A DNA stretch of 64,000 bases from a virus. This document shows positions 8,736 to 59,060 of the stretch, one piece after another. How positions within the stretch are numbered: the first letter of the stretch is position 1; each line of letters opens with the position of its first letter. The stretch lies in IMG/VR virus record IMGVR_UViG_3300031992_000005, positions 64,001-128,000 of that record; one strand, written 5' to 3'. The notes below the pieces were generated by a model, which ran no database searches, was not told where the DNA came from, and saw only the letters and a list, made by a program, of their open reading frames with translations. Both the position numbers and the translations under genes were made by a program.

Positions 8736-8746
8736 AAAGTATAGTT

Positions 8747-9085: not shown

Positions 9086-9105
9086 TAATAAATAAAAAGA
9101 CAGTT

Positions 9106-14863: not shown

Positions 14864-14879
14864 ACATTCCAAACCTAAG

Positions 14880-17417: not shown

Positions 17418-17557
17418 CAAAATATTTAATTATTTTAAATCCAGTAGATGGAATATATCAAGTTGATATTGATTTATATGATTCAGAAGAAGCTGCTCGA
17501 CTTAATTCCTTAATTGATGAAGAAGATATTTATAAAATAATTCCAATAGAATTTTAA
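17414..17557 (+). CDS. small acidic hypothetical protein (47 aa)
   Basis: Hand-translated as MTKYLIILNPVDGIYQVDIDLYDSEEAARLNSLIDEEDIYKIIPIEF*. ATGA-coupled to the upstream FamA copy. Confidence 0.35.
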   Translation: MTKYLIILNPVDGIYQVDIDLYDSEEAARLNSLIDEEDIYKIIPIEF

Positions 17558-17560
17558 AAC

Positions 17561-18040: not shown

Positions 18041-18413
18041 AAAATTACTAATTCAAAACCTTTGTGCAATGTTACCTTATGGAGTAATGTGCCAAGTAGA
18101 CGTTGGATGCGCGGGTTTAGATGATGGAAAATTAGAAGAGATTGATATTCCAGAGGAGCGTGTGAGATTTGCTGATGATGGTTATTGGGATGCAGATATA
18201 GAAGATGTTAAACCTTATCTTCGTCCAATGTCTAGTATGACAGAGGAAGAGAAGAAAGAGTACCATAAGTTATGCGATAATTACTATGACGTATACTTTG
18301 ATAGTGTTGCTAGCCTGGACTGGCTCAATGCTCATCATTTTGACTACAGGGGCCTTATTGAAAAAGGTCTCGCTATTGAAGTTAATGAAAGTAACAATCC
18401 TTATAAATTATGA
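18024..18413 (+). CDS. FamA paralog (129 aa)
   Basis: ATG at 18024 (MIQESKKLLIQNLCAMLPYGV) is preferred over the track start at 17928. Also KPYLRPMSSMTEEE / DWLNAHHFDYRGLIEKGLAIEVNESNNPYKL. Confidence 0.7.
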   Translation: MIQESKKLLIQNLCAMLPYGVMCQVDVGCAGLDDGKLEEIDIPEERVRFADDGYWDADIEDVKPYLRPMSSMTEEEKKEYHKLCDNYYDVYFDSVASLDWLNAHHFDYRGLIEKGLAIEVNESNNPYKL

Positions 18414-18440
18414 AAGACAAAGAAAAAAAATGTTATTGTT

Positions 18441-18460
18441 ATCCCTTCATCTTATATGAG
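18441..18460 (+). promoter_or_regulatory. copy of phage promoter-like motif
   Basis: atcccttcatcttatatgag lies 46 nt upstream of the ATG at 18506. Confidence 0.35.
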
Positions 18461-18505
18461 AGATTATGATAATAACAGAGAGGAAATCTTCAAATTAGGG
18501 AAGAA

Positions 18506-18856
18506 ATGGCTACAAAACAAGCCATTGCCGAAGATTATGACCTAGACAATATCATCACTAATGACATGGGTGAGATATGGCATGAGGTTGGTGGTCAGGA
18601 TGGCATGTACGATAATTTCCCAATCAAGAGGGTGTATCGTGACAATGGAACTGTCAGAGTATATGCTATTGATAGTGGAGGTGGAGTTGCCATTATTGCA
18701 GGGAAAAATCAGTTTCAGATTCTTACACTTGGAGAAGATGACGGCTGGCACTTTCTTAATTCACGTAGAATATATGAAACATTCTATGGTAGTAAAACGG
18801 ACTTTGTTTATCTGATTTCAGAAGCATTGTCTTTATTTAATAATATCGAATTATAA
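18506..18856 (+). CDS. hypothetical protein (116 aa)
   Basis: ATG ORF. The overlapping frames 18542..18751(-) and 18561..18815 are judged spurious. Confidence 0.5.
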   Translation: MATKQAIAEDYDLDNIITNDMGEIWHEVGGQDGMYDNFPIKRVYRDNGTVRVYAIDSGGGVAIIAGKNQFQILTLGEDDGWHFLNSRRIYETFYGSKTDFVYLISEALSLFNNIEL

Positions 18857-18879
18857 AAAATACGAATTAGAAAATCAAT

Positions 18880-19038
18880 ATGAAAAAAGTATTAATCAGT
18901 ATTTATCATTTTTTCTTCAAGAGGAAAAGATGCAAACATTGTGGGTGTGAATTACATAAATATAACACTTACAAGAATGGTTGGAAAGACTATTGCTGTG
19001 ATTGTGAAGACTTTTGTAGATATACTGGTAATTTATAA
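18880..19038 (+). CDS. Cys-rich mini-protein (52 aa)
   Basis: Hand-translated as MKKVLISIYHFFFKRKRCKHCGCELHKYNTYKNGWKDYCCDCEDFCRYTGNL*. It has 8 Cys. Confidence 0.35.
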   Translation: MKKVLISIYHFFFKRKRCKHCGCELHKYNTYKNGWKDYCCDCEDFCRYTGNL

Positions 19039-19043
19039 TAACA

Positions 19044-19337
19044 ATGAAAACAATTAAAACTCCTAAATACAAGCATTCTAATAATGGAACACCTTATGAA
19101 CATTTAGGGAATAAGGATGAAAGAAAAGAAGCAAGAAAATTTGTTAAATCATTGAGGCACAAATTATTGCTTAATATTCCATTGTCTGACGCTGAAAAAA
19201 GTATTGTAGAAGAGTTTGAAATCACAAAAGATTATAAACTCGATACAAATCACGACGTAATTATCTACAGAGAATTTAAAAATTACGATAATGAAAGGTG
19301 GGTTAATGAAGATGAAATTTATAATTCTAAGAATTAA
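19044..19337 (+). CDS. hypothetical protein (97 aa)
   Basis: ATG ORF in the gene train. Confidence 0.5.
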   Translation: MKTIKTPKYKHSNNGTPYEHLGNKDERKEARKFVKSLRHKLLLNIPLSDAEKSIVEEFEITKDYKLDTNHDVIIYREFKNYDNERWVNEDEIYNSKN

Positions 19338-19345
19338 TAAAGGTT

Positions 19346-19786
19346 ATGTACGACGAAAAATTTATAGATGTTTTTAACGAACATTATCCATTTGAAAGAT
19401 ATATCGTTAAGACTCCAAAAGCAGTGGGATTGCTATTTGACGACGCATTATTAACTGAAATATTTATTCCAGATGCTGAGGAAAAAGCTAATCGTCCTTA
19501 CCTAAATAAAGACAAAATTAGCATAAAAATACAAGGTCCTGCTGGGGAAATGAGATTCTGGTTCTATGACTTCGAAGAACATATTCGCCTAAATATTATT
19601 AGAATTATAATAGAGGATATTGGAGATTATCAATATGAGTGTTTATATATTGATAACGAAGATATGGAACCGTTAATAGATGAACTCAAAACTCAAAAGT
19701 CATTAATAGAAAAGAAATATAATATTTGTAAAATAAAACAAAACCTAGTAGACAAAAGTTTTGCAGACGAATCAATCTATAAATAA
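19346..19786 (+). CDS. hypothetical protein (146 aa)
   Basis: ATG ORF in the gene train. Confidence 0.5.
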   Translation: MYDEKFIDVFNEHYPFERYIVKTPKAVGLLFDDALLTEIFIPDAEEKANRPYLNKDKISIKIQGPAGEMRFWFYDFEEHIRLNIIRIIIEDIGDYQYECLYIDNEDMEPLIDELKTQKSLIEKKYNICKIKQNLVDKSFADESIYK

Positions 19787-19788
19787 CT

Positions 19789-20250
19789 ATGACTCAAACC
19801 AAATTAACCGAACAAGGTAAGCAGTTACTCTTAATGGATCTCTGTGCGAGGTTGCCTTATGGAGTAATGTGCGATATGGGATTAAAACATCCATTGCAAT
19901 TACAAAGAATTCTTGTGGATAAACTTGATGGTAATTTACTGGATTTTTATGAAGATGGTAATGATTATCAAGTATATTTAAGTGAAGTTAAGCCATATCT
20001 CCGTTCAATGTCAAGTATGACAAAGGAAGAAAGTATAGAATTACAAACGATTCTAAATGATTGGTGGAATAAAGAGCTTTTTACATTAACAGAAGAACCA
20101 ATGATAGAATATGCATTGTCTTCTATTAATTATACTCTTAATCCTACATTGTTTGATTGGCTTAATAAGAAACATTTTGATTATCGTGGGCTTATTAAAA
20201 AAGGCCTTGCTATAAAAGTAACGGAAGAGAATAATCCTTATAAACTATGA
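19789..20250 (+). CDS. FamA paralog (153 aa)
   Basis: LLLMDLCARLPYGV / KPYLRSMSSMTKEE / DWLNKKHFDYRGLIKKGLAIKVTEENNPYKL. Confidence 0.7.
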   Translation: MTQTKLTEQGKQLLLMDLCARLPYGVMCDMGLKHPLQLQRILVDKLDGNLLDFYEDGNDYQVYLSEVKPYLRSMSSMTKEESIELQTILNDWWNKELFTLTEEPMIEYALSSINYTLNPTLFDWLNKKHFDYRGLIKKGLAIKVTEENNPYKL

Positions 20251-20675
20251 CAGAACAAGGTAAGCAGTTACTCTTGATAGATCTTTGTGCAAGATTACCT
20301 TATGGAGTAAAAGTATGGTATAAATATGGTGCATGGTTTTCTGAAAAGTTTGCAACATCAATAAGATTGGCTGATGAAAAAATTGCCCTTTCCTCTAAAT
20401 TCAATAAAGAAGGCGATTGGTTTCCCATCGAAGAAGCAGGGAAAATTCTAATTAAACCTTATCTCCGTCCGATGTCAAGTATGACTGAGGAAGAAAAAGT
20501 TCAATTATCTCAATATGCTTGCATTGGAGAAGATTTAAATGGAGAATTTATAGACGAAGTACAAAGAAAGGATTGTGCGCCATATATTGATTGGCTCAAT
20601 AAACACCACTTTGACTATCATGGGTTGATTGAGAAGGGTTTAGCGTTAGAAGCACCAAAAGGAATGTATAACTAA
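20247..20675 (+). CDS. FamA paralog (142 aa)
   Basis: LLLIDLCARLPYGV / KPYLRPMSSMTEEE / DWLNKHHFDYHGLIEKGLALEAPKGMYN. Confidence 0.7.
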   Translation: MTEQGKQLLLIDLCARLPYGVKVWYKYGAWFSEKFATSIRLADEKIALSSKFNKEGDWFPIEEAGKILIKPYLRPMSSMTEEEKVQLSQYACIGEDLNGEFIDEVQRKDCAPYIDWLNKHHFDYHGLIEKGLALEAPKGMYN

Positions 20676-20688
20676 AACTTACAAAAAG

Positions 20689-20805
20689 ATGCCTTATATA
20701 TATTTTCCTATTGAATTTTCTTCTTATGTAGATTATGTTAAATACCTAAAAGAAAAAAGTTTCGCTATTGACGTAACAGATGTAATTAACTCATATAAGT
20801 TATGA
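20689..20805 (+). pseudogene. FamA C-terminal relic (38 codons), possibly re-used as promoter/5' leader
   Basis: Translates to MPYIYFPIEFSSYVDYVKYLKEKSFAIDVTDVINSYKL*. The tail FAIDVTDVINSYKL parallels LAIEVTEENNPYKL and keeps the TTATGA junction with the next copy. Its first bases (gatgccttatatatat) also match the promoter motif. Confidence 0.35.
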
Positions 20806-21248
20806 CAGAAGAAGAAAAAGAAATATTGTTAAAAGACCTTTGTGGTAGATTACATTATAGAGTCCTTGTTAGTTACAAAGGCTTAATATACCCACTATTC
20901 AGTGTTGTCCCTACACAACATTTTCAAATCACGCTTGATAGTAGTAAATATTGTGGATTAGTGCATATCAGTCTTGATGATGATGGTGAAAAGCCAAAAC
21001 CTTATCTTCGTCCGATGTCAAGTATGACTGAGGAAGAGAAGAGGGAATATTTCTCATTTATTGGTGGTGTGAGACCATTTGACTGTGATTTTTCTGCATA
21101 TCCGATAGAGTACAAATTCGTTTATGAACATGATATAAATAGTTATATTGATTGGCTCAACAAACACCACTTTGACTATCGTGGATTAATTGAAAAAGGC
21201 CTCGCCATTGAAGCACTAGAAGGAATGTATAATTTAAAAATGGAATAA
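20802..21248 (+). CDS. FamA paralog (148 aa)
   Basis: ILLKDLCGRLHYRV / KPYLRPMSSMTEEE / DWLNKHHFDYRGLIEKGLAIEALEGMYN. Confidence 0.7.
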   Translation: MTEEEKEILLKDLCGRLHYRVLVSYKGLIYPLFSVVPTQHFQITLDSSKYCGLVHISLDDDGEKPKPYLRPMSSMTEEEKREYFSFIGGVRPFDCDFSAYPIEYKFVYEHDINSYIDWLNKHHFDYRGLIEKGLAIEALEGMYNLKME

Positions 21249-21252
21249 AATT

Positions 21253-21405
21253 ATGACTGTTCAAATAAATAAACCAAGATGGAAAAATAAAGAGTGGACG
21301 TTTAATTTAATTCCATATTTGTCAATAACAAAAATCTCTAACTTAGTTATTGCAATTAACATTGGATGGCTATTTTGGGGAATAACAATTAGTAATAATT
21401 TCTAA
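21253..21405 (+). CDS. small membrane protein (50 aa)
   Basis: Hand-translated as MTVQINKPRWKNKEWTFNLIPYLSITKISNLVIAINIGWLFWGITISNNF*. Confidence 0.3.
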   Translation: MTVQINKPRWKNKEWTFNLIPYLSITKISNLVIAINIGWLFWGITISNNF

Positions 21406-21411
21406 ATAATC

Positions 21412-21567
21412 ATGGAACAGAAAAGCAAAGAATTACTATTAAACCTTCTTTCAGAATTAAATGAGAAAGGTTTATTATATATCTATGACAAGGATGAATC
21501 AAATTACTCAATGGATTGGGTATTTTTCGACGGAGAAAAATTATGCATAAAAATTGAGAAAATCTAG
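21412..21567 (+). CDS. small hypothetical protein (51 aa)
   Basis: Hand-translated as MEQKSKELLLNLLSELNEKGLLYIY.. . Its N-terminus faintly echoes the FamA N block. Preferred over the antisense track ORF 21410..21691. Confidence 0.3.
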   Translation: MEQKSKELLLNLLSELNEKGLLYIYDKDESNYSMDWVFFDGEKLCIKIEKI

Positions 21568-21569
21568 TC

Positions 21570-21785
21570 ATGGAAGAATTATTATTCGATAACGTAATGG
21601 ACGGTGAATCATTGGTTAAAGATATATTAAATACTGATGGCGTAAGCTCTATCACGGACGATAATGGAAAATCGTATTGGTGGAATACCATTGATAAGAC
21701 AAGAAATTATCAAGTTAGGAAATATAAATATGATAGAGCACTCCAAGACTATTCAGTTATTTCATATAAAATAAAGGAATTGTAA
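21570..21785 (+). CDS. hypothetical protein (71 aa)
   Basis: ATG ORF in the gene train. Confidence 0.45.
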   Translation: MEELLFDNVMDGESLVKDILNTDGVSSITDDNGKSYWWNTIDKTRNYQVRKYKYDRALQDYSVISYKIKEL

Positions 21786-21795
21786 TAATTATATT

Positions 21796-22140
21796 ATGAT
21801 ACCGGAAAGTAAAAGGCTATTAATCACAGACCTCTGTGCAAGACTACCTTATGATACTATAGTTAGTGTTGCAGAAGGAGGGATTGATGGGGTTCAATGG
21901 AATAAGTCAACATTAAATTTCTATCTACTTCATCAGATCGAAGAGGAAGATGGTTGGGAATTCATTAAACCCTATCTACGTCCAATGGATGATATGACAG
22001 AGGAAGAATCTGAAGAATTTTCCAATATGGAAATCGTAGGTTACTCTAACTATGATTGGCTAAATGCCCATCACTTTGACTATAGAGGCCTTATCGAAAA
22101 AGGACTTGCAATAGATTGTACTGGTTTAAATATTTACTAA
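21796..22140 (+). CDS. FamA paralog (114 aa)
   Basis: LLITDLCARLPYDT / KPYLRPMDDMTEEE / DWLNAHHFDYRGLIEKGLAIDCTGLNIY. Confidence 0.7.
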   Translation: MIPESKRLLITDLCARLPYDTIVSVAEGGIDGVQWNKSTLNFYLLHQIEEEDGWEFIKPYLRPMDDMTEEESEEFSNMEIVGYSNYDWLNAHHFDYRGLIEKGLAIDCTGLNIY

Positions 22141-22152
22141 AATTAAAAAACT

Positions 22153-22575
22153 ATGTCTAAAATTGGTACTTCAGCAGAACAATCTAAGAGACTCGTAGAA
22201 TTAGGAATTGATGTAAATACTGCTGATATGGCATTATGTGGTACACAATTATTAACAACAAGTTACGTATTAGCAAAAAAGAAATTTAGTAATGCTGGTG
22301 AAATCCCTATTGAACCTGCATGGAGTCTTTCTGCTTTGTTGGATTTGTTACCATGTAGCTTGTCTTTATATCCAGAAGCCACGGAAGAAGGAGTAAAAGA
22401 AGGTAAATATAGAAGCTCTGATTTAATTGCTTCAAAAGAAGGTTTTCTTAGAAAAAGATATGATGGCGATTATCAATACAGATACGATGGAATTAAAGTG
22501 GTAGGAGATTTTCAAAATCCTACTGATGCAGTATTTGAAATTATTTGTTGGTTAAAAGAAAATAATAAAATATGA
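22153..22575 (+). CDS. FamC protein (140 aa)
   Basis: AEQSKRLVELGIDVNTAD and PAWSLSALLDLLP. Paralog of 13663..14064. Confidence 0.55.
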   Translation: MSKIGTSAEQSKRLVELGIDVNTADMALCGTQLLTTSYVLAKKKFSNAGEIPIEPAWSLSALLDLLPCSLSLYPEATEEGVKEGKYRSSDLIASKEGFLRKRYDGDYQYRYDGIKVVGDFQNPTDAVFEIICWLKENNKI

Positions 22576-22976
22576 CACAAGAAGGAAAATTTCTTTTATT
22601 GAAAGACCTAAATGCAAGGTTGCCTTATGGAGTTTATGTAGAGCATACAACCACAAAAATAAGAGGCAAATTAAAGGGTATGATGTTTGAACATATCTAC
22701 AATGACACAGATTCTATTCAAGATATAAATGCTTGGGCAATGTTTTTCGGGGATGAATATGTGGATGCTACATATTTTAGGCCAATCTTACGTCCAATGT
22801 CAAGTATGACAGAGGAAGAAAGAAAGGAGTATAAGCATCTTGTAGCATTTAGTGGTAGTCCTGATGGAGCAACAAATTTTACAGACTGGCTAAATGCTAA
22901 TCACTTCGACTATAGAGGTCTTATTGAAAAGGGTTTAGCTATTGAAGTAACAGAAAAGAATAATCCATATAAATAG
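22572..22976 (+). CDS. FamA paralog (134 aa)
   Basis: LLLKDLNARLPYGV / RPILRPMSSMTEEE / DWLNANHFDYRGLIEKGLAIEVTEKNNPYK. Confidence 0.7.
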   Translation: MTQEGKFLLLKDLNARLPYGVYVEHTTTKIRGKLKGMMFEHIYNDTDSIQDINAWAMFFGDEYVDATYFRPILRPMSSMTEEERKEYKHLVAFSGSPDGATNFTDWLNANHFDYRGLIEKGLAIEVTEKNNPYK

Positions 22977-23021
22977 AAGGTTGTAAATTCCTTTTAGAAG
23001 CTATAAAACACTAATTTATAT

Positions 23022-24063: not shown

Positions 24064-24433
24064 AGATTACCTAATAGTAGCACTAATACTGGCACTTTCT
24101 ACTCTAGCACTATTAATTATAGGATTTTTTATAGGAATTCCCGTATATCTTTTTCTAACTTGGAATATTTTTATAGGATGTGTCTTATCCTCTATTTACC
24201 TAATAGTCTTTTTTGAATTATTCTTTGGTTCTAAGGAAGAATATGTTGAATTTGAAGTAGGAGATGTATTGAAATACTTGGAAGAAGATGCTAGAACATG
24301 GCAAGGAAAAAACTATGTAATAGTAAAAAATATTGGTGAATTAGATGGGAAAAAGATCCTAGAATTTGAAGATGGTACTTGGGAATATGCACATAAAGCT
24401 AATCACAATTATTATAAAATAGGAAGAAAATGA
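24053..24433 (+). CDS. membrane protein (126 aa)
   Basis: Two N-terminal TM helices and a soluble C-terminal half. Confidence 0.5.
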   Translation: MKIKDYLIVALILALSTLALLIIGFFIGIPVYLFLTWNIFIGCVLSSIYLIVFFELFFGSKEEYVEFEVGDVLKYLEEDARTWQGKNYVIVKNIGELDGKKILEFEDGTWEYAHKANHNYYKIGRK

Positions 24434-24936
24434 ATAAGAAAAAAGTACTATTTGCCGACTTAGATGGAACATTAATCGAGACGGCAACAGGAAAAACATT
24501 TCCTCTTGGTATCTGGGATATGAAATTTAAGTTTGATGTCCTAGATGCTATAAAAAAGTATAACTTCGAAGGTTTAATAATCGTCACTAATCAAGGTGGC
24601 ATTGAAAAAGGATTAGTTAATGAGAAACACTTTGTAAAAGCAAAGATGGCTTATGTAACTAAATCTTTGGAAGAATATTTACATATTCCAGTCAAATTTG
24701 TTTACTGTGCGTCCAATGACAAGGATTGTGGGCATAGAAAACCTAATACCGGTATGTTAGAAAACGCTTATTGGAAGTTCATTATTAATCAATGGAAAAT
24801 GAATATCAATAAAAGTGATATGCTTATGATAGGTGATGCTAGTGGTAAACCTGGCCAATTCTCTGATTCAGATAAAAAGACCGCAGAGAATTATGGCATT
24901 GACTATATGGATATCGAAGATTTTAAGGCTCTCTAG
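24430..24936 (+). CDS. HAD-superfamily (IIIA-like, PNKP/GmhB-type) phosphatase
   Basis: Motif I FADLDGTL, motif II VTNQGG, motif III RKPNTGM and motif IV GDASG..SDSD, in canonical order. Confidence 0.7.
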   Translation: MNKKKVLFADLDGTLIETATGKTFPLGIWDMKFKFDVLDAIKKYNFEGLIIVTNQGGIEKGLVNEKHFVKAKMAYVTKSLEEYLHIPVKFVYCASNDKDCGHRKPNTGMLENAYWKFIINQWKMNINKSDMLMIGDASGKPGQFSDSDKKTAENYGIDYMDIEDFKAL

Positions 24937-31825: not shown

Positions 31826-32693
31826 TAGAATTTATCTGAGTCCGTGAGATTTAGAAATAATTCTCAAAAGAATCGTATTGCTGCGGGGAACTCCTGTTAG
31901 GCTAATAGTACTAGGGATAGTAACAATCTATTAGATAGGGACAATCCGCTCGTTATAAAGATTAGTTAAAAAACAATAAAAAATATGAATAATATAAAAC
32001 TTTTTTCAGATATTACAAAAACTCTTTCAGACAGAAAAACTATTGAAAAGTTTATAGATAAATATGGATTTGATTTTATAAATCGAATAAATCACGATAG
32101 AAACGGAGGATGCTATGAAGATGGCTGCCCTAAAAGATTACACTTTGAAATGGGCATTAGTCATGGCGAAGCTGCACAATCTCCAGAAAAAGTTTTAAAA
32201 ATAATATCCTATAATAATGATATTATTGGATTATTTTACAATCACCCTAACTATTGCAAAGGATTTTCTGATTACCCAGGTGGATATCCAGTAACATGTT
32301 CCTGTTGGAAAGGAAAAATGTATATTCAATGCCTAGATAAGGTTTTTGATGATTTATATGGATGGGGAACTAGGGAAATTATTGCGAAGATTTTAGGTTG
32401 TAACGATAATAGCAGTTTTAGAAGCATATATCGTGCTGAAGAAGAAGAACGATATAATTCAAAATATTAATAATTATATACAAAAAATAAATATAAATTA
32501 ACAAAAACTAATCTTTATAACTTCAACGACTATCCCCAAAAGGGAGTAGGGTAGCAAGTCTATAACGGCTACTCGAAAGATACGACATCTGACCAGGTTA
32601 AGCTGAAGATGAAAATATAGTCTGATCTGTATGGAGACATACAGGAGTTCATAAGAGAACCGGGAATTAGTGACGCAATTCTTGAACAACATG
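31826..32693 (+). mobile_element. group I intron 1 (868 nt) with internal ORF
   Basis: The 5' exon ends in U31825. An internal guide GUCCGUG (31840..31846) can pair with the exon end UGCGGAU, with a U.G wobble at the splice site. The intron ends in G32693. Joining restores DAD|ADGDAI, equivalent to the GyrB DADVDGSHI motif. A 67-nt 5' core (31883..31949) and a 3' core of about 125 nt containing ..gaagatgaaaatatagtct (32500..32623) are nearly identical to those of intron 2. Confidence 0.75.
31985..32470 (+). CDS. intron-1-encoded protein, unknown family (161 aa)
   Basis: ATG ORF located between the two conserved ribozyme blocks. Cys/His-rich (CYEDGCPKRLH, HPNYC, CSCW). No LAGLIDADG, GIY-YIG, HNH or His-Cys-box signature recognised. 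Confidence 0.55.
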   Translation: MNNIKLFSDITKTLSDRKTIEKFIDKYGFDFINRINHDRNGGCYEDGCPKRLHFEMGISHGEAAQSPEKVLKIISYNNDIIGLFYNHPNYCKGFSDYPGGYPVTCSCWKGKMYIQCLDKVFDDLYGWGTREIIAKILGCNDNSSFRSIYRAEEEERYNSKY

Positions 32694-32916
32694 GCAGATG
32701 GAGATGCAATCTTTAATGAAATAATATACTTATTCAGTAAATTCGCACGTTTCTTATTAGACCATCATATGGTATATCGTGCTATGTCTCCTCTTTTCAG
32801 AGGAATCAGTAAGACAACAGGACAAGTAACTTATTATTATCCAGATGATAAGTTCGACAATAAGGGTATTCCAGTAGATCTTGATATAAAGAAACCATAT
32901 GATCGCTGGAAAGGAT
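32694..32916 (+). CDS. type II topoisomerase large subunit, exon 2
   Basis: ADGDAIFNEIIYLF..HMVYRAMSPLFRG..DRWKGL matches the GyrB Toprim tail (DG.HI..LL..F...G.vY.a.PPLY ... KGLGE). The reading frame continues only by splicing. Confidence 0.7.
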
Positions 32917-34455
32917 TAGGAAATAGTCCTAGTATGTAGAAATACATACCGTATAATTCTATTAAAAGCGGGGAACTCCTGTTAGGCTAATAGTACTAGA
33001 GATAGTAACAATCTATTAGATAGGGACAATCCGCAGTTGATGAGATTAGTTAAAAAATTAAAATAAAAACATGTTAAGACAAGACCTGAAGAAACAATTA
33101 GAGAACAAAGACTTAGACAAAATTTTCTTACAACATCGAGATAACATAGATCCAGGAAATTATAGAGTCGGGGAAATAGGCGAAGAAGTAGTTGTCTGGA
33201 ACCCTGACACTAATGAAATAATGGACTATTTCTTTGATGATAGTAAGGAAGAATGGTTTTGTTTAAGTATGATAAATAAAAATTTAGGTAATTATTCTAT
33301 AAATAAAAAAGGGGAAGTTAAAAGCCCAAAAAAACTACTAAAAAAAGTAGAACATGAAAGTTATTTATGCTATTTTCCATCTTATATTATAAATAAGAAA
33401 AGAAAATCTGTTAATCTCTATATTCATAGAGTATTAGCGATGATATTTATTCCAAACATAGATCCAAAAAATAAGGTAGATGTAGATCATATTGATAGGA
33501 ATAGGCATAATTTTTCACTAACTAACTTAAGATGGGTAACTAAAAAAGAAAGTGCTGAAAATAAAGAACAACCGCGTTGGCACGGGGAATATTCATACAT
33601 AGCCTACAAAGATAAAGAAAAGACACAAATCGCTTTCAAGCTAAATGAAGAGGATTTCCTTAAGAAAGGCTTTAAAAAGAAGCCATTATATGGTGCTATC
33701 AAGAACAATCATAGGTCACAAGGATATTATTGGACTAGAGTAAATCTACAGTTAGCAGAGTATCTAAAAAAGTTTAATATGCAAGAACAAGATATTGATG
33801 ATACAGAATGGAAATTACATTATTCTGGAACATTCTGGGTACATCCGCTAGGTTTAGTAAAAAAAACAAAACATAGTCCAATTATTTCTCCTGGTTGTCT
33901 TGACAGGAAGCGGAAAGAACGTCATTCAGTTAAAAGATATAATGGTAAACTAGTTCATATTTTGGTGGCAGAGGTGTTTTTAAACGACAATAAACCAATA
34001 CCTAAGAAATATGAGGTGGACCATACATCTGGAGATTCTCTGGATAATAGAGCCTCGAATTTAAATATTTGCACACACATCAAGAATATGAATAACCCAA
34101 ATACTTTAAAAAAAAAATATAAAAAAATAATCAATCTTGATACTGGTGAAATCTATAATTCGATAGCAGAATGTGCAAATGTATCTAAAATACATCGTGC
34201 CACGGTGTATAGAAATATAAAAAAAGGAATAAGATTTAAATATTACAAAGAAAATTAACAAAAAACTAATCTCATCAACTTCAACGACTATCCCTTTATG
34301 GGAGTAGAATAGCAAGTCTACAATGGCTATTCGAAAGATAGAACATCTGACCAGGTTAAGCTGAAGATGAAAATATAGTCTAAGCACCGTAGAGATGCGG
34401 TGGAGAGTTTACTACTCTCGCGTTTAAAGTAGGCGATTAAACGTAAATATAACTG
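32917..34455 (+). mobile_element. group I intron 2 (1539 nt) with HNH homing-endonuclease ORF
   Basis: The 5' exon ends in U32916. Guide GUCCU (32926..32930) pairs with the exon end AGGAU. The intron ends in G34455. Joining restores KGLG|SLSPETGEVYDSFYNPYTRRLVLVT, equivalent to GyrB KGLGEMNPEQLWETTMDP..R.L..V. Its core blocks 32968..33034 and 34257..34381 match intron 1. Confidence 0.7.
33071..34258 (+). CDS. HNH homing endonuclease (tandem NUMOD4+HNH_3 units, C-terminal NUMOD1-like HTH)
   Basis: YSINKKGEVKS + VDVDHIDRNRHNFSLTNLRWVTKKESAENK, then a second unit YEVDHTSGDSLDNRASNLNICTHIKNMNN, then GEIYNSIAECANVSKIHRATVYRNIKKG. Confidence 0.75.
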   Translation: MLRQDLKKQLENKDLDKIFLQHRDNIDPGNYRVGEIGEEVVVWNPDTNEIMDYFFDDSKEEWFCLSMINKNLGNYSINKKGEVKSPKKLLKKVEHESYLCYFPSYIINKKRKSVNLYIHRVLAMIFIPNIDPKNKVDVDHIDRNRHNFSLTNLRWVTKKESAENKEQPRWHGEYSYIAYKDKEKTQIAFKLNEEDFLKKGFKKKPLYGAIKNNHRSQGYYWTRVNLQLAEYLKKFNMQEQDIDDTEWKLHYSGTFWVHPLGLVKKTKHSPIISPGCLDRKRKERHSVKRYNGKLVHILVAEVFLNDNKPIPKKYEVDHTSGDSLDNRASNLNICTHIKNMNNPNTLKKKYKKIINLDTGEIYNSIAECANVSKIHRATVYRNIKKGIRFKYYKEN

Positions 34456-36279: not shown

Positions 36280-36830
36280 TATTAGGAAATTCGCTTGAAG
36301 CAATAGTTGAGGCATGTTACCTAGGAGAATCCCTAACAAAGAAAACAGGAAGAGCTAATATTCTTGTTAATCCTAAAGACTACCTCGACTATATAATTGG
36401 AAGAACTATTATTATCAATAGTAGTGTAATCCCAATTGATACAATCAGGACTCTACAAGAAAATAAGAACAAAATTATCTGTAGAGTTAAGCGTGAGGAT
36501 TTTCCCTATTATCCTTATGTACTTAGAGTTAATTTCAATGTAAGATGGAATGGGCAGGTTCTTGATTGCCCTAAAACCAATATTCCTGAAATTAGCTCTT
36601 GGATCTGGGGATCAGAGGACTTTGAATTGGAATTTGATACCGGCGAAAAACCTGTAATGTATTTCCCAAAAATAAAAGGAATACCAAAGGAACTTCTTAT
36701 AGATGAATGTGGAAATCTGAACTTCCTAGGATGGGTTCTACAACAGGTAGGAGTTAATGTGACACTGGAAACAAAATTTCATGACATGGATATTATAAAA
36801 ACAAAAAAGCTTGTAACATTACCAGAATGA
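36276..36830 (+). CDS. hypothetical protein (184 aa)
   Basis: ATGA-coupled ORF. Confidence 0.55.
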   Translation: MILGNSLEAIVEACYLGESLTKKTGRANILVNPKDYLDYIIGRTIIINSSVIPIDTIRTLQENKNKIICRVKREDFPYYPYVLRVNFNVRWNGQVLDCPKTNIPEISSWIWGSEDFELEFDTGEKPVMYFPKIKGIPKELLIDECGNLNFLGWVLQQVGVNVTLETKFHDMDIIKTKKLVTLPE

Positions 36831-36832
36831 AT

Positions 36833-36949
36833 CCTCCTAAATCCTTATATATGAGCATCACTGACAATAGTGGTGAATTGCAATAATTAGTTTTATATTC
36901 AAATGAATTCAAGAGATCCGTTCGTGAGAATAGATCTCTCTTTTTTTTC
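36833..36949 (+). promoter_or_regulatory. ORF-less promoter-motif / hairpin / T-run mini-cassette
   Basis: Motif tcctcctaaatccttatatatg (36833..36853), then about 58 nt, then hairpin gagatccgttc-GTGA-gaatagatctc (36912..36940) and a T8 run. Confidence 0.45.
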
Positions 36950-36971
36950 TTCCCTGAAACCCTTAATAATG
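36949..36971 (+). promoter_or_regulatory. copy of phage promoter-like motif
   Basis: cttccctgaaacccttaataatg lies 21 nt upstream of the ATG at 36992. Confidence 0.4.
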
Positions 36972-36991
36972 TATTATTAAATAGAAAAATT

Positions 36992-37909
36992 ATGGATTCA
37001 AGACAAAAATTTTTAATGATAAAGCTAGCAGCTCTTGAGAAGAGAGAGTTAGAATTTATAAATCATTCAAACCGTGATTGTCCTCAATGTAAAAAAATCA
37101 AAGAGATTTTTCAGATGGATTTGAATTTGAGGGCCCAAATCTTAGACATGGAAGTATCAGAATTAGAGAAAACAGCGGATGAAATCCTGAAAAGACACAA
37201 CAATATATATCGTTGGCCTCCTAAGCGCTTTAGGGAAATTAAAAAGGAACCTGCCCCAGAGATAGAATCTTATACTGATCCTCTTGAAAAGGAAATAGTA
37301 GAACTGTTAAAAAATCGAGTTGGAATACATATTGTCGACGATGACTTATTAAAAGGTCTGATTGAAAATTCTAAATTAAATGATCATATATGTAAAAAAG
37401 TTGGAGAACCATCAGTACAAATAACTGACGCTGAATTGAGACTAGACTATCGTACCTATCAGATAGAAATGATTACTGAATTTAGTGCATGTAGTTATAA
37501 TAATGAACTGATAATTCCTATTAAAGGAATGTTTTCAGAGGATTTTAAGAAAAATCTGATAGACTACGTTAATAGGAGTGAGAAAATTGATGATGAAATC
37601 CGAGAACTTGGTTTTAGTAACAATGAAATAAAAGATAAGAGAAATATTCGAAAATTAGCGAAAGCTATGTCTTTGGATCAAATCCCAATTAACGTCCGTG
37701 TTTTGGGACTGGCAGTAATTGGTACAGAGTTGTGTTTAGATTTTGGTCCAATACATTTTAAAAACAATACGTCATTACGAATTTATTGGAATGATGAAGA
37801 TTGGGAAGACAACAATCGATATATCAAACTTAGAGACTTACCTATTAAGGTGAAAGAAATAATAGTTAACATCTTAAAACGTAAGAAGAAAAATGCCAAA
37901 CTGGTGTGA
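36992..37909 (+). CDS. hypothetical protein (305 aa)
   Basis: Long ATG ORF with one CPQC pair. No domain recognised. Confidence 0.55.
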   Translation: MDSRQKFLMIKLAALEKRELEFINHSNRDCPQCKKIKEIFQMDLNLRAQILDMEVSELEKTADEILKRHNNIYRWPPKRFREIKKEPAPEIESYTDPLEKEIVELLKNRVGIHIVDDDLLKGLIENSKLNDHICKKVGEPSVQITDAELRLDYRTYQIEMITEFSACSYNNELIIPIKGMFSEDFKKNLIDYVNRSEKIDDEIRELGFSNNEIKDKRNIRKLAKAMSLDQIPINVRVLGLAVIGTELCLDFGPIHFKNNTSLRIYWNDEDWEDNNRYIKLRDLPIKVKEIIVNILKRKKKNAKLV

Positions 37910-38501
37910 TACAACTTACATTTGTGTAGGAAATCCTATCGAGATTCGTCAATTGCATAAAGCAATAGTAACGAATATGAGAAGAAAAACTAGTCGTGTC
38001 AAGAATGATTTTGGCACTCTCTGGTTAGGCAACATTATTGATCAACTCGGCGGTAATTGGAAAGACTGGAATTGTAGAGGTTCAATTCTAAACTATTATA
38101 TAGAAAGAGCCTCTAAAGTTAATTCTAATAAACTTGTAAAACTTACTATTTACCAAACAACTGCTTGGAATGAACAGGAGGGATTTAGAAAATTTATTGA
38201 ACAGAAGTTTCCATCTATCAAAGTCTACTACTTGGAAATAGAACCAGAAGATTCAAGGTTTAGAACAAACGATGATACTGGTAATTATTTTCCAGATCGC
38301 TATCTTATAGATACTCATTGCGGAATTAAGATGTTTAATACTCTTAAAGAAGTAGCTGAATTTGCATCGAAGAAAGTAGAAAAAACAGTAGATGCTAACG
38401 TAGATGCTATAAAGAAAGCTTTAGATGATATTATATTTGATGTAGACAGTAACGAGGAAGACATCTTTTATGAATTTCATGAAATCCAAGTCATCCCCTG
38501 A
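37893..38501 (+). CDS. hypothetical protein; N-terminus resembles the DUF1281/Api92-like MPNWC signature
   Basis: Starts MPNWCDTTYICVGNP. This pattern is recalled from memory as typical of the DUF1281 ferredoxin-like family and has not been verified. Confidence 0.45.
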   Translation: MPNWCDTTYICVGNPIEIRQLHKAIVTNMRRKTSRVKNDFGTLWLGNIIDQLGGNWKDWNCRGSILNYYIERASKVNSNKLVKLTIYQTTAWNEQEGFRKFIEQKFPSIKVYYLEIEPEDSRFRTNDDTGNYFPDRYLIDTHCGIKMFNTLKEVAEFASKKVEKTVDANVDAIKKALDDIIFDVDSNEEDIFYEFHEIQVIP

Positions 38502-39272
38502 AACCCTTATATATGTACCCAGGTATATTATGCCAACCCCAATTACCTGGGTTTGCCAAATTAATCATGTTTTTTTATTAAGAAGACTTGCTCGTGAGAG
38601 TAGGTCTTTTTTTTATCCCCTTAAATCCTTATTAATGTCTCAGAAAAAAGTTTTTTTATGTCATCTTGTATTTGATTTTTTAAATGAATGGCTTGCTCGT
38701 GATGAGTAGGCCATTTTTTTTTATCCCCTTAAACCCTTATTAATGAATATGTCTTTAGGGAGCCTCGGCAATAGTAACCCCGGTCTTAGGTTATCACTAG
38801 CCACGTGGTAACGGGTTACTGGGCTCCCTTTTTTTATCCCTTAAATTCCTTATAATTGGATTAATACTCATATTTTGTTTTTTATTTAATACTAAAGGCC
38901 CACGTCTGTGAAGATATGGGTCTTTTTTTATCCCTTTAGTTCCTTATATATGAACATTTGTTAATAATATTTTAATTGTTAATGTGAATGGTTTGCCTGG
39001 GAAGGTAGACCATTTTTTCAAATCCCTTTAAACCCTTATATATGAGTTAGTCGTGAGAAGGGAGCCATTCGAGTAGTCCGGACCTTGAGACCGTCTACGG
39101 ACGGTAATGGGATTACAGGCTCCCCATTTTTTTTTTCAAATCCCGTTAAATTCTTATATATGTTAAGAACATGGCATAGATTTTTTTAGCATTTAAAGGA
39201 AATTCGCTCGTGATGAGTAGATTTCCTTGCTTTTTTTTCTGTTCCCAGAGAAGGATTTCCTTATAAGTATGA
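38491..39272 (+). repeat. array of 8 promoter-like motifs interleaved with 8 hairpin + T-run terminators; no credible ORF
   Basis: Motifs lie at 38491-38515, 38615-38637, 38723-38745, 38836-38859, 38930-38952, 39019-39044, 39137-39162 and 39242-39271. Hairpins lie at 38517-38552, 38583-38608, 38687-38715, 38758-38828, 38894-38925, 38987-39014, 39060-39124 and 39196-39228. Each hairpin is followed by a T5-T10 run. Confidence 0.7.
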
Positions 39273-39293
39273 ATAGTATAAATTTTAGGTTAT

Positions 39294-40343
39294 ATGTTAA
39301 CAATTGTACCAGATGTTGAACAGGTTGTGGAAGATATTTATATAGAACATATTCAAAAAGGTAAAGGAGTTGGATTGAATTATAGAATTTATCCACTTAC
39401 CCCTGATGGCGGCGATATTTATACAGATACGGGATATATACCAACTATATGTTTTAATAATAATCCATCCACAGCAAAAACATTACCGATCATAAACCTA
39501 GTTTCTTCGAGAATAGATAAATTTAAATCTGGGAATACGGGTAATGCTATGAACGTATTTAACTATTTGAAAAATGACTACAGTCCTAGTATAGGGGTTC
39601 CCGATCTAATATTGATTAGAGAATACCCAATTCCTATAGATAATCCCAACGTATGGAAGAAATATGTAATTAAAGAATTTAAAAATGATCTGAATAATCT
39701 AGATTTTAAATTCCTAAATAGAAGTTTTATTAGTTTAGACGTTTATTCACCACAGCAAAAATTAGCAATAGAAGCAGATTCTAGTAAATATCACTCTGGA
39801 ATTAATGAAAGAAAAGATTGGGTAAGGGACAGATATTTAGAAGACGTTGTTGGAATAGATACAATTCGAATTATGGACTTTATTCCTTCTTCTGAATATA
39901 ATATAAACGAATTTAAAAAGAAACTGGATAATTATAAGATCAATAAAACTAAAGACGCTTATTACCCAGAACCTAAAAAACTTGCTTCTACAGTTTTTAA
40001 TTATAATAATACCCCACTAGTAAAAGAAACTGTTAATTATATAAGAAATTTCGTATACAGGGAAAATCACTTAGAAGATAAGCCCTCTAATAACCTAGCT
40101 TATAGAATTTTATCCTATTTTATGAGTCTTGAACTTAAAATTAAATTTGTGGGAGAAAGTTTATTTACAATGGGAGATTATAAGAATAGAGCAAGAAACT
40201 TTCTAATGACAGTAAAAACTATCATAAATAAAACAATCAAAGATCCAACACTGGAATTTTTAATTTCCGATGAAGATGTCCAATATTATATTGACTGTAA
40301 TTATAAAAAAGGAATTCTGAAGCACTTAATTCCTTACAAATGA
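39294..40343 (+). CDS. hypothetical protein with possible PD-(D/E)xK (DUF559/Vsr-like) nuclease core
   Basis: FISLDVYSPQQKLAIEADSSKYHSG..RKDWVRDRYLEDVVGIDTIRI resembles the ..D..(n)..vEvDG..H...D..R...L...G..v.R pattern. The match is weak. Confidence 0.45.
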   Translation: MLTIVPDVEQVVEDIYIEHIQKGKGVGLNYRIYPLTPDGGDIYTDTGYIPTICFNNNPSTAKTLPIINLVSSRIDKFKSGNTGNAMNVFNYLKNDYSPSIGVPDLILIREYPIPIDNPNVWKKYVIKEFKNDLNNLDFKFLNRSFISLDVYSPQQKLAIEADSSKYHSGINERKDWVRDRYLEDVVGIDTIRIMDFIPSSEYNINEFKKKLDNYKINKTKDAYYPEPKKLASTVFNYNNTPLVKETVNYIRNFVYRENHLEDKPSNNLAYRILSYFMSLELKIKFVGESLFTMGDYKNRARNFLMTVKTIINKTIKDPTLEFLISDEDVQYYIDCNYKKGILKHLIPYK

Positions 40344-56839: not shown

Positions 56840-57376
56840 TTAGAAGAAATCCACTATTATATAAGAAACAGAATTATATACAGGCCTTCTATACAACAAT
56901 TTATTCCAGATCCAAGGAATAGGTAATAAACAATACCAGAAGTGCTTTTTATCTATTTCTGGAAAATAGTTATGTGATGTAATATCAGACGTTGTAATAA
57001 AATTCCACTTAGGCTTTTTTATTGCAATAAAACCTACCTTACAACCTTCTGGTATCCAACCTGCAACTAGGTTAATAAAATCCTCAGGATAAGAATGCCA
57101 ATCTCCCTCATAAGTAAAGTTAAGAATACACTCATGACCCTTAAAGAGATTCATTGCTTCTTTAACTGTCATCTTACTTCTCCAAAGACCATGAGCAAAT
57201 ACCCACGTATCTCCCTTTTCTTTTACTCTAAGATCAAACCAGGTAATACCACTATTAAGCTGTTCTGACAAAGTTTTTCTTTGACACTTAGCAAAGATCT
57301 TACCTAGTCGACTTAAAAACCCAGAACTTTTCTCACCTGTCGCACTATTATGCGTTCCGATTTTCAATGAATTCAT
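56840..57376 (-). CDS. PLC-like phosphodiesterase (PI-PLC X-domain-like), 178 aa
   Basis: IGTHNSATGE (compare PGTHDSGT), ITWFDLRV (compare IFDIRGR) and VFAHGLW (compare VLHHGPL), with the order and spacing of the bacterial PI-PLC catalytic His/Arg/His. Its start overlaps the cca gene by 29 nt. Confidence 0.45.
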   Translation of the reverse strand: MNSLKIGTHNSATGEKSSGFLSRLGKIFAKCQRKTLSEQLNSGITWFDLRVKEKGDTWVFAHGLWRSKMTVKEAMNLFKGHECILNFTYEGDWHSYPEDFINLVAGWIPEGCKVGFIAIKKPKWNFITTSDITSHNYFPEIDKKHFWYCLLPIPWIWNKLLYRRPVYNSVSYIIVDFF

Positions 57377-58727
57377 TATATTTAATTTTAATAAAATTTT
57401 CCAAAGCCTCAGGAGTATTTTCTAACACTCCATCTAAAACTGCCTCTTTCATAGCATTTTTTATTAGACCGACCATTCTTCCTTTTCCAATACCTAGGAT
57501 TTCCATTATCTCATTTCCTCCAAGGCATGGTTGAAAAAGCCGAACGAGATCTTTTTCTTGCAGGTCACTAATCATCTTTCTTAACTTATCATAGTGATCC
57601 TGTAACCTCATTCTTTTCGAGGGTCTTCTCGAAGTTACGTCAGATTCACAAAGGAGTAGTAGGTCTTCTAAATCTTCTCCAGCATCATAAATAAGCCTTC
57701 TAACAGCACTATCAGTAATAACTGAAGTACTAATCATAGCTGGCCTCATGTGCATATCAACCAGCTTTTGAACATAGTCTTTCTTACCTATCCTAAGCCT
57801 ATCAAGAACTCCTGGTATTAAGTTAGCCCCAATATGTTCATGATTATAGAAGGTCCACTCTCCTGTAGTAGGATCAAATCTCTGAGTAGAAGCTTTTCCA
57901 ATATCATGAAGAAGAGCCGCTATTCTAAGGTAAGGATTAGTTGTTTTCCCCACAATATTTCTCAAAACCTGTAAAGAATGCTTATAATTATCCTTATGTC
58001 CTTCAAGATCATTTCCTGCTTTAAGGGCAGTTAACTCAGGGAGAATCATTTCAAGGAGTTCAGCTGCATCTAGGAGTTCAATTCCTGCAACTGGATCGGG
58101 AGAAGCCATGATTTTTAGAAATTCCGTGCCAATCCTATCAGGGGTTAGAATTTTTATTCTATCCTTCAAAACCTTCATTGCATCAATTAGTCTCGAATCT
58201 ATGAGAAAACCCAATTTACACGTGAATCTAATAGCTCTGAACATGCGCAATGGATCATCCTTGAAAGTAATCATGGGATCCGTTGGTGTCATTATAATCT
58301 TACTTTTTAAATACTTTCGTCCATCAAACGGATCAACATACTCCCCAAAATGCTTCTCATTAAGACACATGGCAATAGTATTTATAGTAAAATCCCTTCT
58401 CATCTGATCATCATATAATGTACCTGGTACTACAGAAGGTTTTCTACTATCTGGGCTATAGGATTCTTTCCTAGCCCCAACAAATTCTACTTCTAGGTTA
58501 TTATACTTTACTGCGGCAGTTCCATAACGTTCATATCTGAGAACCTTACTCTGATGAATCTCCTTGGCAAATTCATCCGCCATCTTTACACCATCACCGA
58601 CGACAACAATATCAATGTCGTCATTTTCTATACCTAGAAGCTTATCTCTTACGTATCCACCTATAACATAACATGGTAGATTAATTTTGTCTGCTACTTT
58701 TCCAATTAATTTTAATAAGTCTTCCAT
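57348..58727 (-). CDS. cca: tRNA nucleotidyltransferase (CCA-adding enzyme) with HD domain
   Basis: Pol-beta head GGYVRDKLLG..DDIDIVV, RDFTINT, and HD domain HSLQV..LLHDIGK. Confidence 0.85.
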   Translation of the reverse strand: MEDLLKLIGKVADKINLPCYVIGGYVRDKLLGIENDDIDIVVVGDGVKMADEFAKEIHQSKVLRYERYGTAAVKYNNLEVEFVGARKESYSPDSRKPSVVPGTLYDDQMRRDFTINTIAMCLNEKHFGEYVDPFDGRKYLKSKIIMTPTDPMITFKDDPLRMFRAIRFTCKLGFLIDSRLIDAMKVLKDRIKILTPDRIGTEFLKIMASPDPVAGIELLDAAELLEMILPELTALKAGNDLEGHKDNYKHSLQVLRNIVGKTTNPYLRIAALLHDIGKASTQRFDPTTGEWTFYNHEHIGANLIPGVLDRLRIGKKDYVQKLVDMHMRPAMISTSVITDSAVRRLIYDAGEDLEDLLLLCESDVTSRRPSKRMRLQDHYDKLRKMISDLQEKDLVRLFQPCLGGNEIMEILGIGKGRMVGLIKNAMKEAVLDGVLENTPEALENFIKIKYNEFIENRNA

Positions 58728-58747: not shown

Positions 58748-58773
58748 CATATATAAGGAAAATAAAGGGAGGC
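58748..58773 (-). promoter_or_regulatory. copy of phage promoter-like motif (minus strand)
   Basis: The reverse complement reads gcctccctttattttccttatatatg, 21 nt upstream of the cca start. Confidence 0.4.
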
Positions 58774-58900
58774 ATTTCGCTATTAGGAGAGTTGAGCCTA
58801 AGTATCTTCACCTCATACTCAGACCCAAACTCCTAATAATAGATAAGACTTTCCAGTCTCACCGACCAAGACCCCTCCATTAATGGGCCTTAAGCGAAAT
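58774..58900. other. structured segment in divergent intergenic region (strand and function unknown)
   Basis: 8-bp closing helix atttcgct (58774..58781) / agcgaaat (58893..58900). Nested 9-bp helix tattaggag (58781..) / ctcctaata (58830..58838). Hairpin agact-ttcc-agtct (58846..58859). Confidence 0.3.
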
Positions 58901-58941
58901 CCTCATTAGTAAGGGGATAATGGGTAGTGAAGTGAGTTTTT

Positions 58942-59060
58942 ATTCCCTTTAATGCCTTATATATAGCTAGAAAGCATTTTATTATTATTAATACTGCAGA
59001 AAGAGTCGGTCCGGGATGGATAGACTCTTTTTTTTATTCCCGTTAAAACCTTATTAAAAG
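58942..59060 (+). promoter_or_regulatory. ORF-less mini-cassette followed by the promoter motif of 59077
   Basis: Motif attccctttaatgccttatatatag (58942..58966), hairpin aagagtc..gactctt (59001..59029) plus a T8 run, and motif attcccgttaaaaccttattaaaag (59036..59060), which lies 17 nt upstream of the ATG. Confidence 0.45.

Follow-up and report, generated by a model that had tools for sequence, protein, structure and literature searches.

A tandem array of predicted mini transcription units without open reading frames in a viral genome fragment, some with candidate structured small RNAs

What does a densely coding genome keep in 792 nt that specify no credible protein? The question is raised by a 64,000-nt stretch of viral DNA (positions 64,001 to 128,000 of IMG/VR record IMGVR_UViG_3300031992_000005), here called the window, whose own coordinates are used throughout. 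Its G+C content is 34% and its genes are closely packed, except between the open reading frames (ORFs) 37893-38501 and 39294-40343. An initial annotation, made from the letters alone, had described this gap as eight ORF-less units, each with a promoter-like motif, a hairpin and a T-run. We find that the array (38493-39272) is a real, non-random feature. In our judgement it is probably a hyperplastic stack of independent mini transcription units, similar to the promoter-early stem-loop (PeSL) cassettes of T4-type phages, part of them carrying conserved structured small RNAs and part being empty or decaying.

A fuzzy motif scan and a repeat finder located seven copies of a 23-nt motif (array consensus aTCCCyTTAAAnCCTTATATATG) at 38493, 38615, 38723, 38836, 38930, 39022 and 39140, spaced by 92-122 nt. 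Each of the seven is followed by a stable hairpin and then by a run of six to ten T residues (T6-T10), much as had been noted, and the folds of the units have z-scores of -2.2 to -5.2. The first copy, P1, overlaps the stop codon of ORF 37893-38501. Seven of the eight units originally proposed were thus retained. The eighth was not, as 39241-39271 is a longer variant of the motif, GTTCCC-N12-TTTCCTTATAAGTATG, located 22 nt upstream of the ATG of ORF 39294-40343; given this position, we assign it (P8) as a gene promoter rather than an empty unit. The two single ORF-less units reported elsewhere were found as claimed, at 36831-36948 (here u0) and 58943-59035. The component parts, with promoters and terminators as predicted, are listed below; L006 (sample SRR16020848) is a related genome, 90-94% identical to the window, and a second close relative, L021 (ENA ERZ28612945), is 99% identical.

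36831..36948, + strand: u0, a single ORF-less unit, with its promoter motif at 36831-36853
Interior of u0, + strand: 5' hairpin H0 (36855-36876), an AU-rich linker, a GNRA-loop terminator (36912-36939) and a T-run to 36948
36949-36971, + strand: gene promoter directly after u0, serving ORF 36992
38493..38515, + strand: promoter P1, lying over the TGA stop of ORF 37893-38501
38517..38552, + strand: hairpin H1 of unit 1, with a 9-bp stem and an 18-nt C-rich loop, GCCAACCCCAA
Up to 38572, + strand: tail of H1, conserved in L006
38583..38614, + strand: terminator T1 (GUGA loop) and its T-run
38615..38722, + strand: unit 2, comprising P2 (38615-38637), an AT-rich slot, terminator T2 (38687-38715) and a T-run to 38722
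38723..38745, + strand: promoter P3, 100% identical in L006
38757..38835, + strand: rod A of unit 3 with its run of seven T; the rod itself is 38757-38829
38836..38929, + strand: unit 4, comprising P4 (38836-38858, a 1-nt indel variant of the motif), an AT-rich slot, terminator T4 (38895-38924) and a T-run
38930..39018, + strand: unit 5, comprising P5 (38930-38952), an AT-rich slot, terminator T5 (38987-39014, GGGA loop) and a T-run
39022..39044, + strand: promoter P6
39060..39136, + strand: rod B of unit 6 (39060-39124), then C-A and a run of ten T (39125-39136)
39140..39238, + strand: unit 7, comprising P7 (39140-39162), an AT-rich slot, the unit 7 terminator (39196-39228) and a T-run (39231-39238)
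39241..39271, + strand: long-variant promoter P8, serving ORF 39294-40343
58943..59035, + strand: second single ORF-less unit, comprising a promoter (58943-58965), a slot, a GNRA-type terminator (59000-59030) and a T-run
59037-59059, + strand: gene promoter after the unit 58943-59035

The true repeat of the array is not the promoter alone. It is a composite of about 55 nt made of terminator, T-run and promoter, as the repeat families of 28-53 nt, with a period of 92-122 nt, each contain the 3' arm of a hairpin, the T-run and the promoter. A GNRA-apex hairpin directly precedes a promoter motif at eight sites in the window, and GNRA-apex terminators occur there almost exclusively beside ORF-less units. 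The hairpins have the anatomy of intrinsic terminators, namely a stable G+C-rich hairpin directly before a U-run. When 21 such hairpins from the clade were aligned, 89% of cells were paired, compared with 60% in shuffled and 32-47% in slid alignments; both-sided changes were present at 12 of the 13 pairs, and loop positions 1, 3 and 4 were invariably G, G and A. This pattern points to a covarying family of GNRA-loop intrinsic terminators. In L006, T1 has a GCGA instead of a GUGA loop and a basal G-C instead of an A-U pair, and the u0 terminator is 100% identical.

In many of the short units, six or seven T residues also lie ahead of an A-rich stretch (TTAAA) touching the terminator stem, at a distance of 5-20 nt from it; examples are 38568-38597, 38673-38702, units 4 and 7, and unit 1 of the relative L061. 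The hairpin may thus not be the 5' limit of the repeat. The upstream run is not kept in unit 4 of L006.

The window contains 11 copies of the core CCTTATWWWTG where 1.02 would be expected; none of 100 shuffles reaches 11, and six of the copies lie within 38505-39044. The motif always has the same orientation as the genes, on both strands. Scanning of the window and nine relatives gave 54 sites, of which 21 precede an ORF of at least 40 codons, 12-54 nt (mostly 14-30) separating the end of the motif from the ATG. For 51 sites, taken from ten loci, the consensus reads T-rich / aTCCCtTTAAAnCCTTATATATG. Bacteroidota promoters consist of a -33 TTTG and a -7 TAnnTTTG element, in which T-12, A-11, T-8, T-7, T-6 and G-5 are near-invariant (PMC6847099). 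The motif positions T16 A17 .. T20 A21 T22 G23 fit five of these six, A replacing T at -7, and the -33 position is occupied by the T-run of the terminator upstream. As the 3' end of the motif fits the -7 box, its terminal ATG appears to be part of the promoter and not a start codon, and the G at -5 predicts a transcription start about 5 nt past the motif. In the relative L057, a motif at 4854-4876 precedes a tRNA-Leu(taa) gene at 4936-5019, after which come a hairpin with T8 and the next promoter, so that this class of promoter and of hairpin/T-run terminator appears to be used for a stable RNA gene. Taken together, the co-orientation with genes, the distance to start codons, the -7 box and the tRNA-Leu unit indicate that the 23-nt motif behaves as a promoter, in agreement with the initial annotation.

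A host of Bacteroidota type is probable, since a Shine-Dalgarno-like 4-mer precedes only four of the 71 window genes and initiation regions are A-rich, which is the pattern described for Bacteroidota (PMC6847099). The element TCCCyTTAAA, located between the -33 and -7 positions, is strongly conserved in the motif and absent from the Bacteroidota sigma consensus; its presence suggests that a phage-specific factor may be involved. Scanning for sigma-70 promoters did not detect the array motifs, and the combined sigma-70/terminator scan missed nearly all elements, owing to mismatches in the stems and to a promoter that does not resemble the sigma-70 type. The best matches to the motif in the window (three mismatches or fewer) all precede ORF-less units.

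The longer variant of the motif consists of CCTTCCC, about 12 nt that often form a small inverted repeat (TTCCC..GGGAA), and then GCCTTATATATA. It was observed at 39241 and 42095 (+) and at 55804 and 56785 (-) in the window, and at 3925 and 4110 in L061, always before ORFs; the short variant precedes ORFs and ORF-less units alike. Between 4215 and 36831 the window holds no copy of the motif, so that about 32 kb of + strand genes would depend on read-through or on another type of promoter.

Concerning coding capacity, the earlier statement that the array lacks a credible ORF was upheld. Only two frames of at least 60 aa touch 38493-39272, and neither is credible: a 79-aa frame runs through two terminators and a promoter, and a 67-aa frame on the minus strand overlaps the next gene. 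The peptides that would start at the motif ATGs are 2-24 aa long and mutually unrelated, confirming that these triplets open no consistent reading frame.

What lies between promoter and terminator differs strongly from unit to unit. The two rods, said to share the closing helix GGGAGCC/GGCUCCC, do so, and they further have in common a three-helix layout, two 5' bulges and a similar 3' strand. Rod A consists of three coaxial helices of 9, 8 and 8 bp with an unbroken 3' strand, and its basal helix, together with the seven T residues that follow, doubles as the terminator of unit 3. Rod B ends in a UACG tetraloop, and the similarity between the interiors of the two rods has a p value of about 0.03 by shuffling. 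Rod A (56% G+C), rod B (58%) and H1 (47%) are all well above the genome average, and the slots of units 2, 4, 5 and 7 are at 14-24% (20% in unit 2 and 14% in unit 4).

Comparison of the window with L006 gave identities of 95-100% for terminators, 93% for rod A, 92-95% for H1 with its tail and 74-100% for promoters; leaders, linkers and AT-rich slots were 33-68% identical, the linker beside H1 having the lowest value and the unit 4 slot the highest. At four-fold degenerate sites of neighbouring genes the same two genomes are 79-92% identical, so that divergence in the AT-rich slots outpaces that at synonymous sites. Rod A has three substitutions at paired positions, all of which retain pairing via G.U, and do so in the + strand RNA only; the rod is predicted to fold at -33.9 kcal/mol on that strand and at -28.3 kcal/mol on the opposite one. 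In H0, a compensatory change from U-A to C-G was found in L006 and a change from U.G to U-A in L021. Conservation was measured for rod A, H1 and H0, and that of rod B we infer from its likeness to rod A. Short independent transcription units remain the best reading, with predicted lengths of about 60-95 nt. The wider notion of a battery of small RNAs (sRNAs) applies, at most, to some of the units, given that the slots of units 2, 4, 5 and 7 seem free of constraint.

The relatives show that such units come and go in cassette-bounded steps. L021 has the entire array. L006 lacks exactly unit 2, and the junction is a hybrid cassette composed of T1 and P3. In a second lineage, L061 and L007 have in common a five-unit ORF-less array after a ClpB-like gene; an indel of 715 bp with two ORFs sets them apart, and a repeated cassette of 38 nt marks its boundaries. 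These two junctions, like the repetition of a single cassette of terminator, T-run and promoter, fit the suggestion that the array is of PeSL type. L006 also lacks the 305-aa ORF 36992-37909, through a deletion that extends from its start codon to that of the next gene and has just one boundary near a cassette; the loss is assigned to L006 because a homologue is kept in the more distant L007 and L072. Among the relatives the arrays are non-syntenic, with varying positions relative to a conserved gene pair and unrelated interiors. The topoisomerase locus of L022, 69% identical, has neither array nor motif, and homologues of the 202-aa flanking protein (60% identity or less) are mostly found in unrelated resolvase contexts.

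Larger units under the same or a similar promoter were also observed. An ORF-less unit of about 570 nt at 3636-4203 begins with a near-consensus motif (3636-3658) and ends in a hairpin with T8 before the promoter at 4203; its interior is richer in G+C and strongly folded, making it a candidate long non-coding RNA, and it had no Rfam match at E up to 1 and no homologue in the loci compared. Between the divergent promoters at 58748 (-) and 58943 (+) lies a G+C-rich element of about 170 nt (58771-58942), closed by the long-range helix GGCATTTCGCT / AGCGAAATCC and folding better on the minus strand (-62 vs -44 kcal/mol), for which no homologue was found. Same-promoter ORF-less units with larger G+C-rich structured RNAs (136 to >260 nt, none matching Rfam) are present at 4047-5371 (-) in L031, 1445-4282 (-) in L073 and 7112-9720 (+) in L044, L031 and L073 being derived from one contig.

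Based on this anatomy, we propose that the seven ORF-less units are monocistronic and built from one cassette of GNRA-loop terminator, T-run and 23-nt promoter. The RNA polymerase of a Bacteroidota-type host would probably start about 5 nt past the final G of the motif, possibly assisted by a phage factor reading TCCCyTTAAA, and would stop 60-95 nt downstream at the next hairpin and U-run. For u0 and units 1 to 7 this predicts + strand RNAs with 5' ends near 36858, 38520, 38642, 38750, 38863, 38957, 39049 and 39167. Units 1, 3 and 6 and u0 would give rise to GC-rich structured small RNAs (H1, rod A, rod B and H0), probably stable species that bind a protein or another RNA, and units 2, 4, 5 and 7, being AT-rich, are most likely empty or decaying cassettes. 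Because the cassettes of about 55 nt are suitable substrates for homologous recombination, the array could grow, shrink and swap its cargo in the manner of the PeSL regions of T4-type phages. Units of the same promoter class in relatives contain a tRNA gene or other structured RNAs. The anatomy, the repeat family, the covariation of the terminators, the geometry of the promoters, the cassette-bounded indels and the pattern of conservation were observed directly. From the sequence we infer transcription, its start sites and the function of the RNAs, as well as the promoter and terminator activities, and this dependence is the first of several points that weigh against the proposal.

The covariation sought by the initial annotation, present in the terminators, is limited in rod A to pair-preserving changes: this rod is found in only three near-identical genomes and shows no both-sided pair change. 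Shuffle controls are consequently uninformative and the structural evidence, coming from three genomes, is suggestive and not statistical. Its 93% identity is just modestly above that of neutral sites, and rod B and units 5-7 are comparable only with L021. A covariance model of rod A, applied to the window and 16 loci, recovered only the three near-identical copies and did not match rod B. When a degenerate pattern for both rods was searched, one likely chance match was obtained in GTDB genomes and none in IMG/VR, and all-against-all blastn of the related loci revealed no pair of intermediate divergence with a common non-coding unit. Rfam, whose use had been recommended earlier and whose version 15 includes Bacteroides sRNAs, identified no family in the array: the whole window had no match at gathering thresholds, and 36700-39400 had only sub-threshold matches at E up to 10, the best scoring 21-26 bits against thresholds of 54-105 and resting on the terminator. 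A search of the window for antisense targets gave nothing convincing, the longest complements (11-14 nt) being judged near chance for AT-rich sequence. Constraint seems to be lacking in half of the units, and unit 2 can be dispensed with. Lastly, the host sigma consensus does not account for the conserved TCCCyTTAAA element.

Several of these points would be expected if the array were a pure by-product, in which unequal recombination had left seven empty cassettes, the RNAs had no function and the rods were merely long terminators. The dispensability of unit 2, the divergence of slots and leaders beyond that of synonymous sites, the non-syntenic arrays with unrelated contents, the lack of an Rfam match or antisense target and the way in which both rods run straight into a T-run, as terminators do, all agree with such an origin. 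We nevertheless regard it as possible but unlikely, since cassette recombination deletes the intervening DNA and does not by itself make seven different interiors. Moreover, the rods and H1 are GC-rich islands (47-58% in a 34% genome) whose elaborate and conserved interiors far exceed what termination needs, substitutions in them are pair-preserving and specific to the + strand, and the L057 unit under the same class of promoter holds a bona fide tRNA gene. A role at the level of DNA or transcription, as a multi-terminator insulator, a promoter sink that captures host RNA polymerase or a transcription-primed origin, is decidedly improbable. It could draw on the presence of seven near-consensus promoters and seven terminators in 780 bp, on the best motif matches all being before ORF-less units and on the AT-rich segments after several promoters. 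A single terminator and promoter would suffice for insulation, however, similar arrays occur more than once per contig (L031, L073) and at differing places in relatives, and strong terminators directly after the promoters speak against R-loop priming. As for an origin, cumulative GC skew has no inflection at 38-39 kb, turning instead at about 43-44 kb where gene orientation flips, and the repeat finder gave no iterons beyond the cassette repeats.

A tRNA identity of the rods, in degenerate or unconventional form, or their membership in another known family (Y-RNA-like RNAs, CRISPR-repeat mimics or type III antitoxins), we consider very unlikely in spite of their tRNA-like size (65-73 nt) and 7-bp G-rich closing helix, of the CCA-adding-enzyme-like protein and PNK 3'-phosphatase of the phage, and of the tRNAs carried by relatives, one of them in a promoter-to-terminator unit of the same type. 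ARAGORN identified no tRNA anywhere in the window, 36700-39400 matched no tRNA, Y-RNA-like or CRISPR-repeat family of Rfam at E up to 10, and no cloverleaf can be drawn for the rods because D- and T-arms are missing. Type III toxin-antitoxin arrays of the ToxI type consist of tandem identical RNA-body repeats of about 36 nt beside a toxN-like gene. Here it is the promoter and terminator that are repeated, unlike the RNA body of ToxI arrays, and the interiors are mutually unrelated; with Pfam, the upstream flanking ORF gave nothing and the downstream one only weak sub-threshold restriction-endonuclease-like matches, so that no ToxN-like gene is evident. Micro-proteins of 2-24 aa, read from the motif ATG or from internal ATGs, are scarcely credible. 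Every motif does end in ATG or TTG, and unit 2 has a 5-codon ORF at the usual distance (20 nt) past the motif. The terminal TG is nonetheless the conserved end of the -7 box, present before the tRNA-Leu gene too, frames are inconsistent, and the peptides of units 0, 1 and 3 are destroyed in L006 by a 2-nt indel, an 8-nt insertion and new stops that leave the hairpins intact.

With regard to its wider setting, the window looks like part of a large phage genome. It encodes both subunits of a T4-like topoisomerase II, SbcCD-like nuclease subunits, a GroEL-like chaperonin and BspA-type leucine-rich repeat proteins, one of which has a weak sub-threshold dockerin match. Megablast against 50,697 cultured-phage records gave no nucleotide match to the window, and by tblastn the large topoisomerase II subunit is less than 30% identical to that of any cultured phage. 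A CCA-adding-enzyme-like protein with PolyA_pol head, RNA-binding and HD domains (57348-58727, -) and a PNK 3'-phosphatase-domain protein (24430-24936, +) suggest an RNA or tRNA repair kit; these repair-type genes are present, yet the window is without a tRNA gene, and the relatives L057 and L073 have tRNAs. At about 13000-23000 there is a long series of paralogous ORFs of about 130-150 aa with similar N-termini, a copy of which is found in L003/L057. An HNH endonuclease ORF (33071-34258) is enclosed by a direct repeat (32497-32706 / 34241-34405; about 60 nt near-identical, about 170-200 nt by translated similarity), all of it located between the two topoisomerase II subunit genes. The repeat has no Rfam match and is present as one copy, with no HNH gene, in L022; a homing endonuclease may have inserted here and duplicated its target, or the repeat may be a structured element.

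A bolder extension of our proposal is that, in this clade of uncultured phages of Bacteroidota-type hosts, the terminator-promoter cassette serves as an integron-like, plug-in platform for RNA genes, and that the rods and H1 are new, highly expressed decoy or sponge RNAs. We think this rather unlikely. Under it, tRNAs, rods, large-loop hairpins and longer structured RNAs would be captured, duplicated and discarded by cassette recombination, and a host defence nuclease or RNA-binding protein would be the candidate target of the decoys, which would fit the RNA-repair genes of the phage.

Should transcription of the units follow the prediction, mobile regulatory cassettes of the PeSL kind would extend beyond T4-type coliphages, and would organise non-coding RNA genes as well as ORFans, with another promoter grammar, in uncultured phages of Bacteroidota-type hosts. 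A compact set of candidate small RNAs also results, consisting of H0, H1, rod A and rod B, for each of which a start and a stop are predicted. The consensus of the 23-nt promoter and of the terminator should be of use for annotation of this phage group and as expression parts for Bacteroidota, and birth-and-death turnover of tiny transcription units is documented here among genomes that are 90-99% identical.

Among known systems, temperate-phage morons consist of a promoter, a cargo gene and a terminator inserted between genes. The array units resemble them in being autonomous promoter-to-terminator units between phage genes, but the moron alternative of the initial annotation was rejected, as the units are in tandem, have no conserved cargo ORF (candidate peptides being broken in L006) and no prophage context. 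T4 co-transcribes the RNAs of its tRNA region, species 1 and 2 included, and processes them afterwards. The array is likewise a gene-free stretch that would be given to small stable RNAs, and a relative has its tRNA-Leu under the same promoter class with a hairpin and T-run, as in phage clusters of tRNAs and small stable RNAs; in contrast to T4, promoter and terminator are separate for every unit, and the RNAs are not tRNAs and belong to no described family. Classical genes for trans-acting sRNAs comprise a 5' stem-loop, a single-stranded AU-rich stretch and an intrinsic terminator. Units u0 and 1 have exactly this layout and the predicted 60-95 nt fit, the difference being the head-to-tail arrangement of seven units with shared regulatory cassettes, half of them seemingly unconstrained. 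The integron array is an analogy only: it too is a tandem series in which repeated boundary elements mediate gain, loss and reshuffling of cargo, whereas our array shows no integrase or attC sites, presumably depends on general homologous recombination, has a promoter for each unit and carries RNA or nothing.

The closest likeness is to the PeSL cassettes of T4-type phages (Arbiol et al. 2010, PMC2839356; Comeau et al. 2014, PMC4122927). In both, a terminator stem-loop joined to a promoter forms the composite, many copies of which cluster in variable regions, and indels between close relatives are cassette-bounded, with a hybrid cassette at the junction. PeSLs are described as flanking small ORFans, in hyperplastic regions of T4-type myoviruses, whereas the cassettes described here flank ORF-less slots, and a search of the text of the two papers found no ORF-less cassette stack. 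The array promoter has a Bacteroidota-type -7 box and TCCCyTTAAA and is not sigma-70-like, its stem-loop has a GNRA apex in place of the polyG/polyC stem of PeSLs, and the phage is not demonstrably of T4 type, given its divergent topoisomerase II. The logic of the cassettes has its precedent in T4-type phages. New here are the grammar of the promoter, the stacking without ORFs, the cargo of RNA and the clade.

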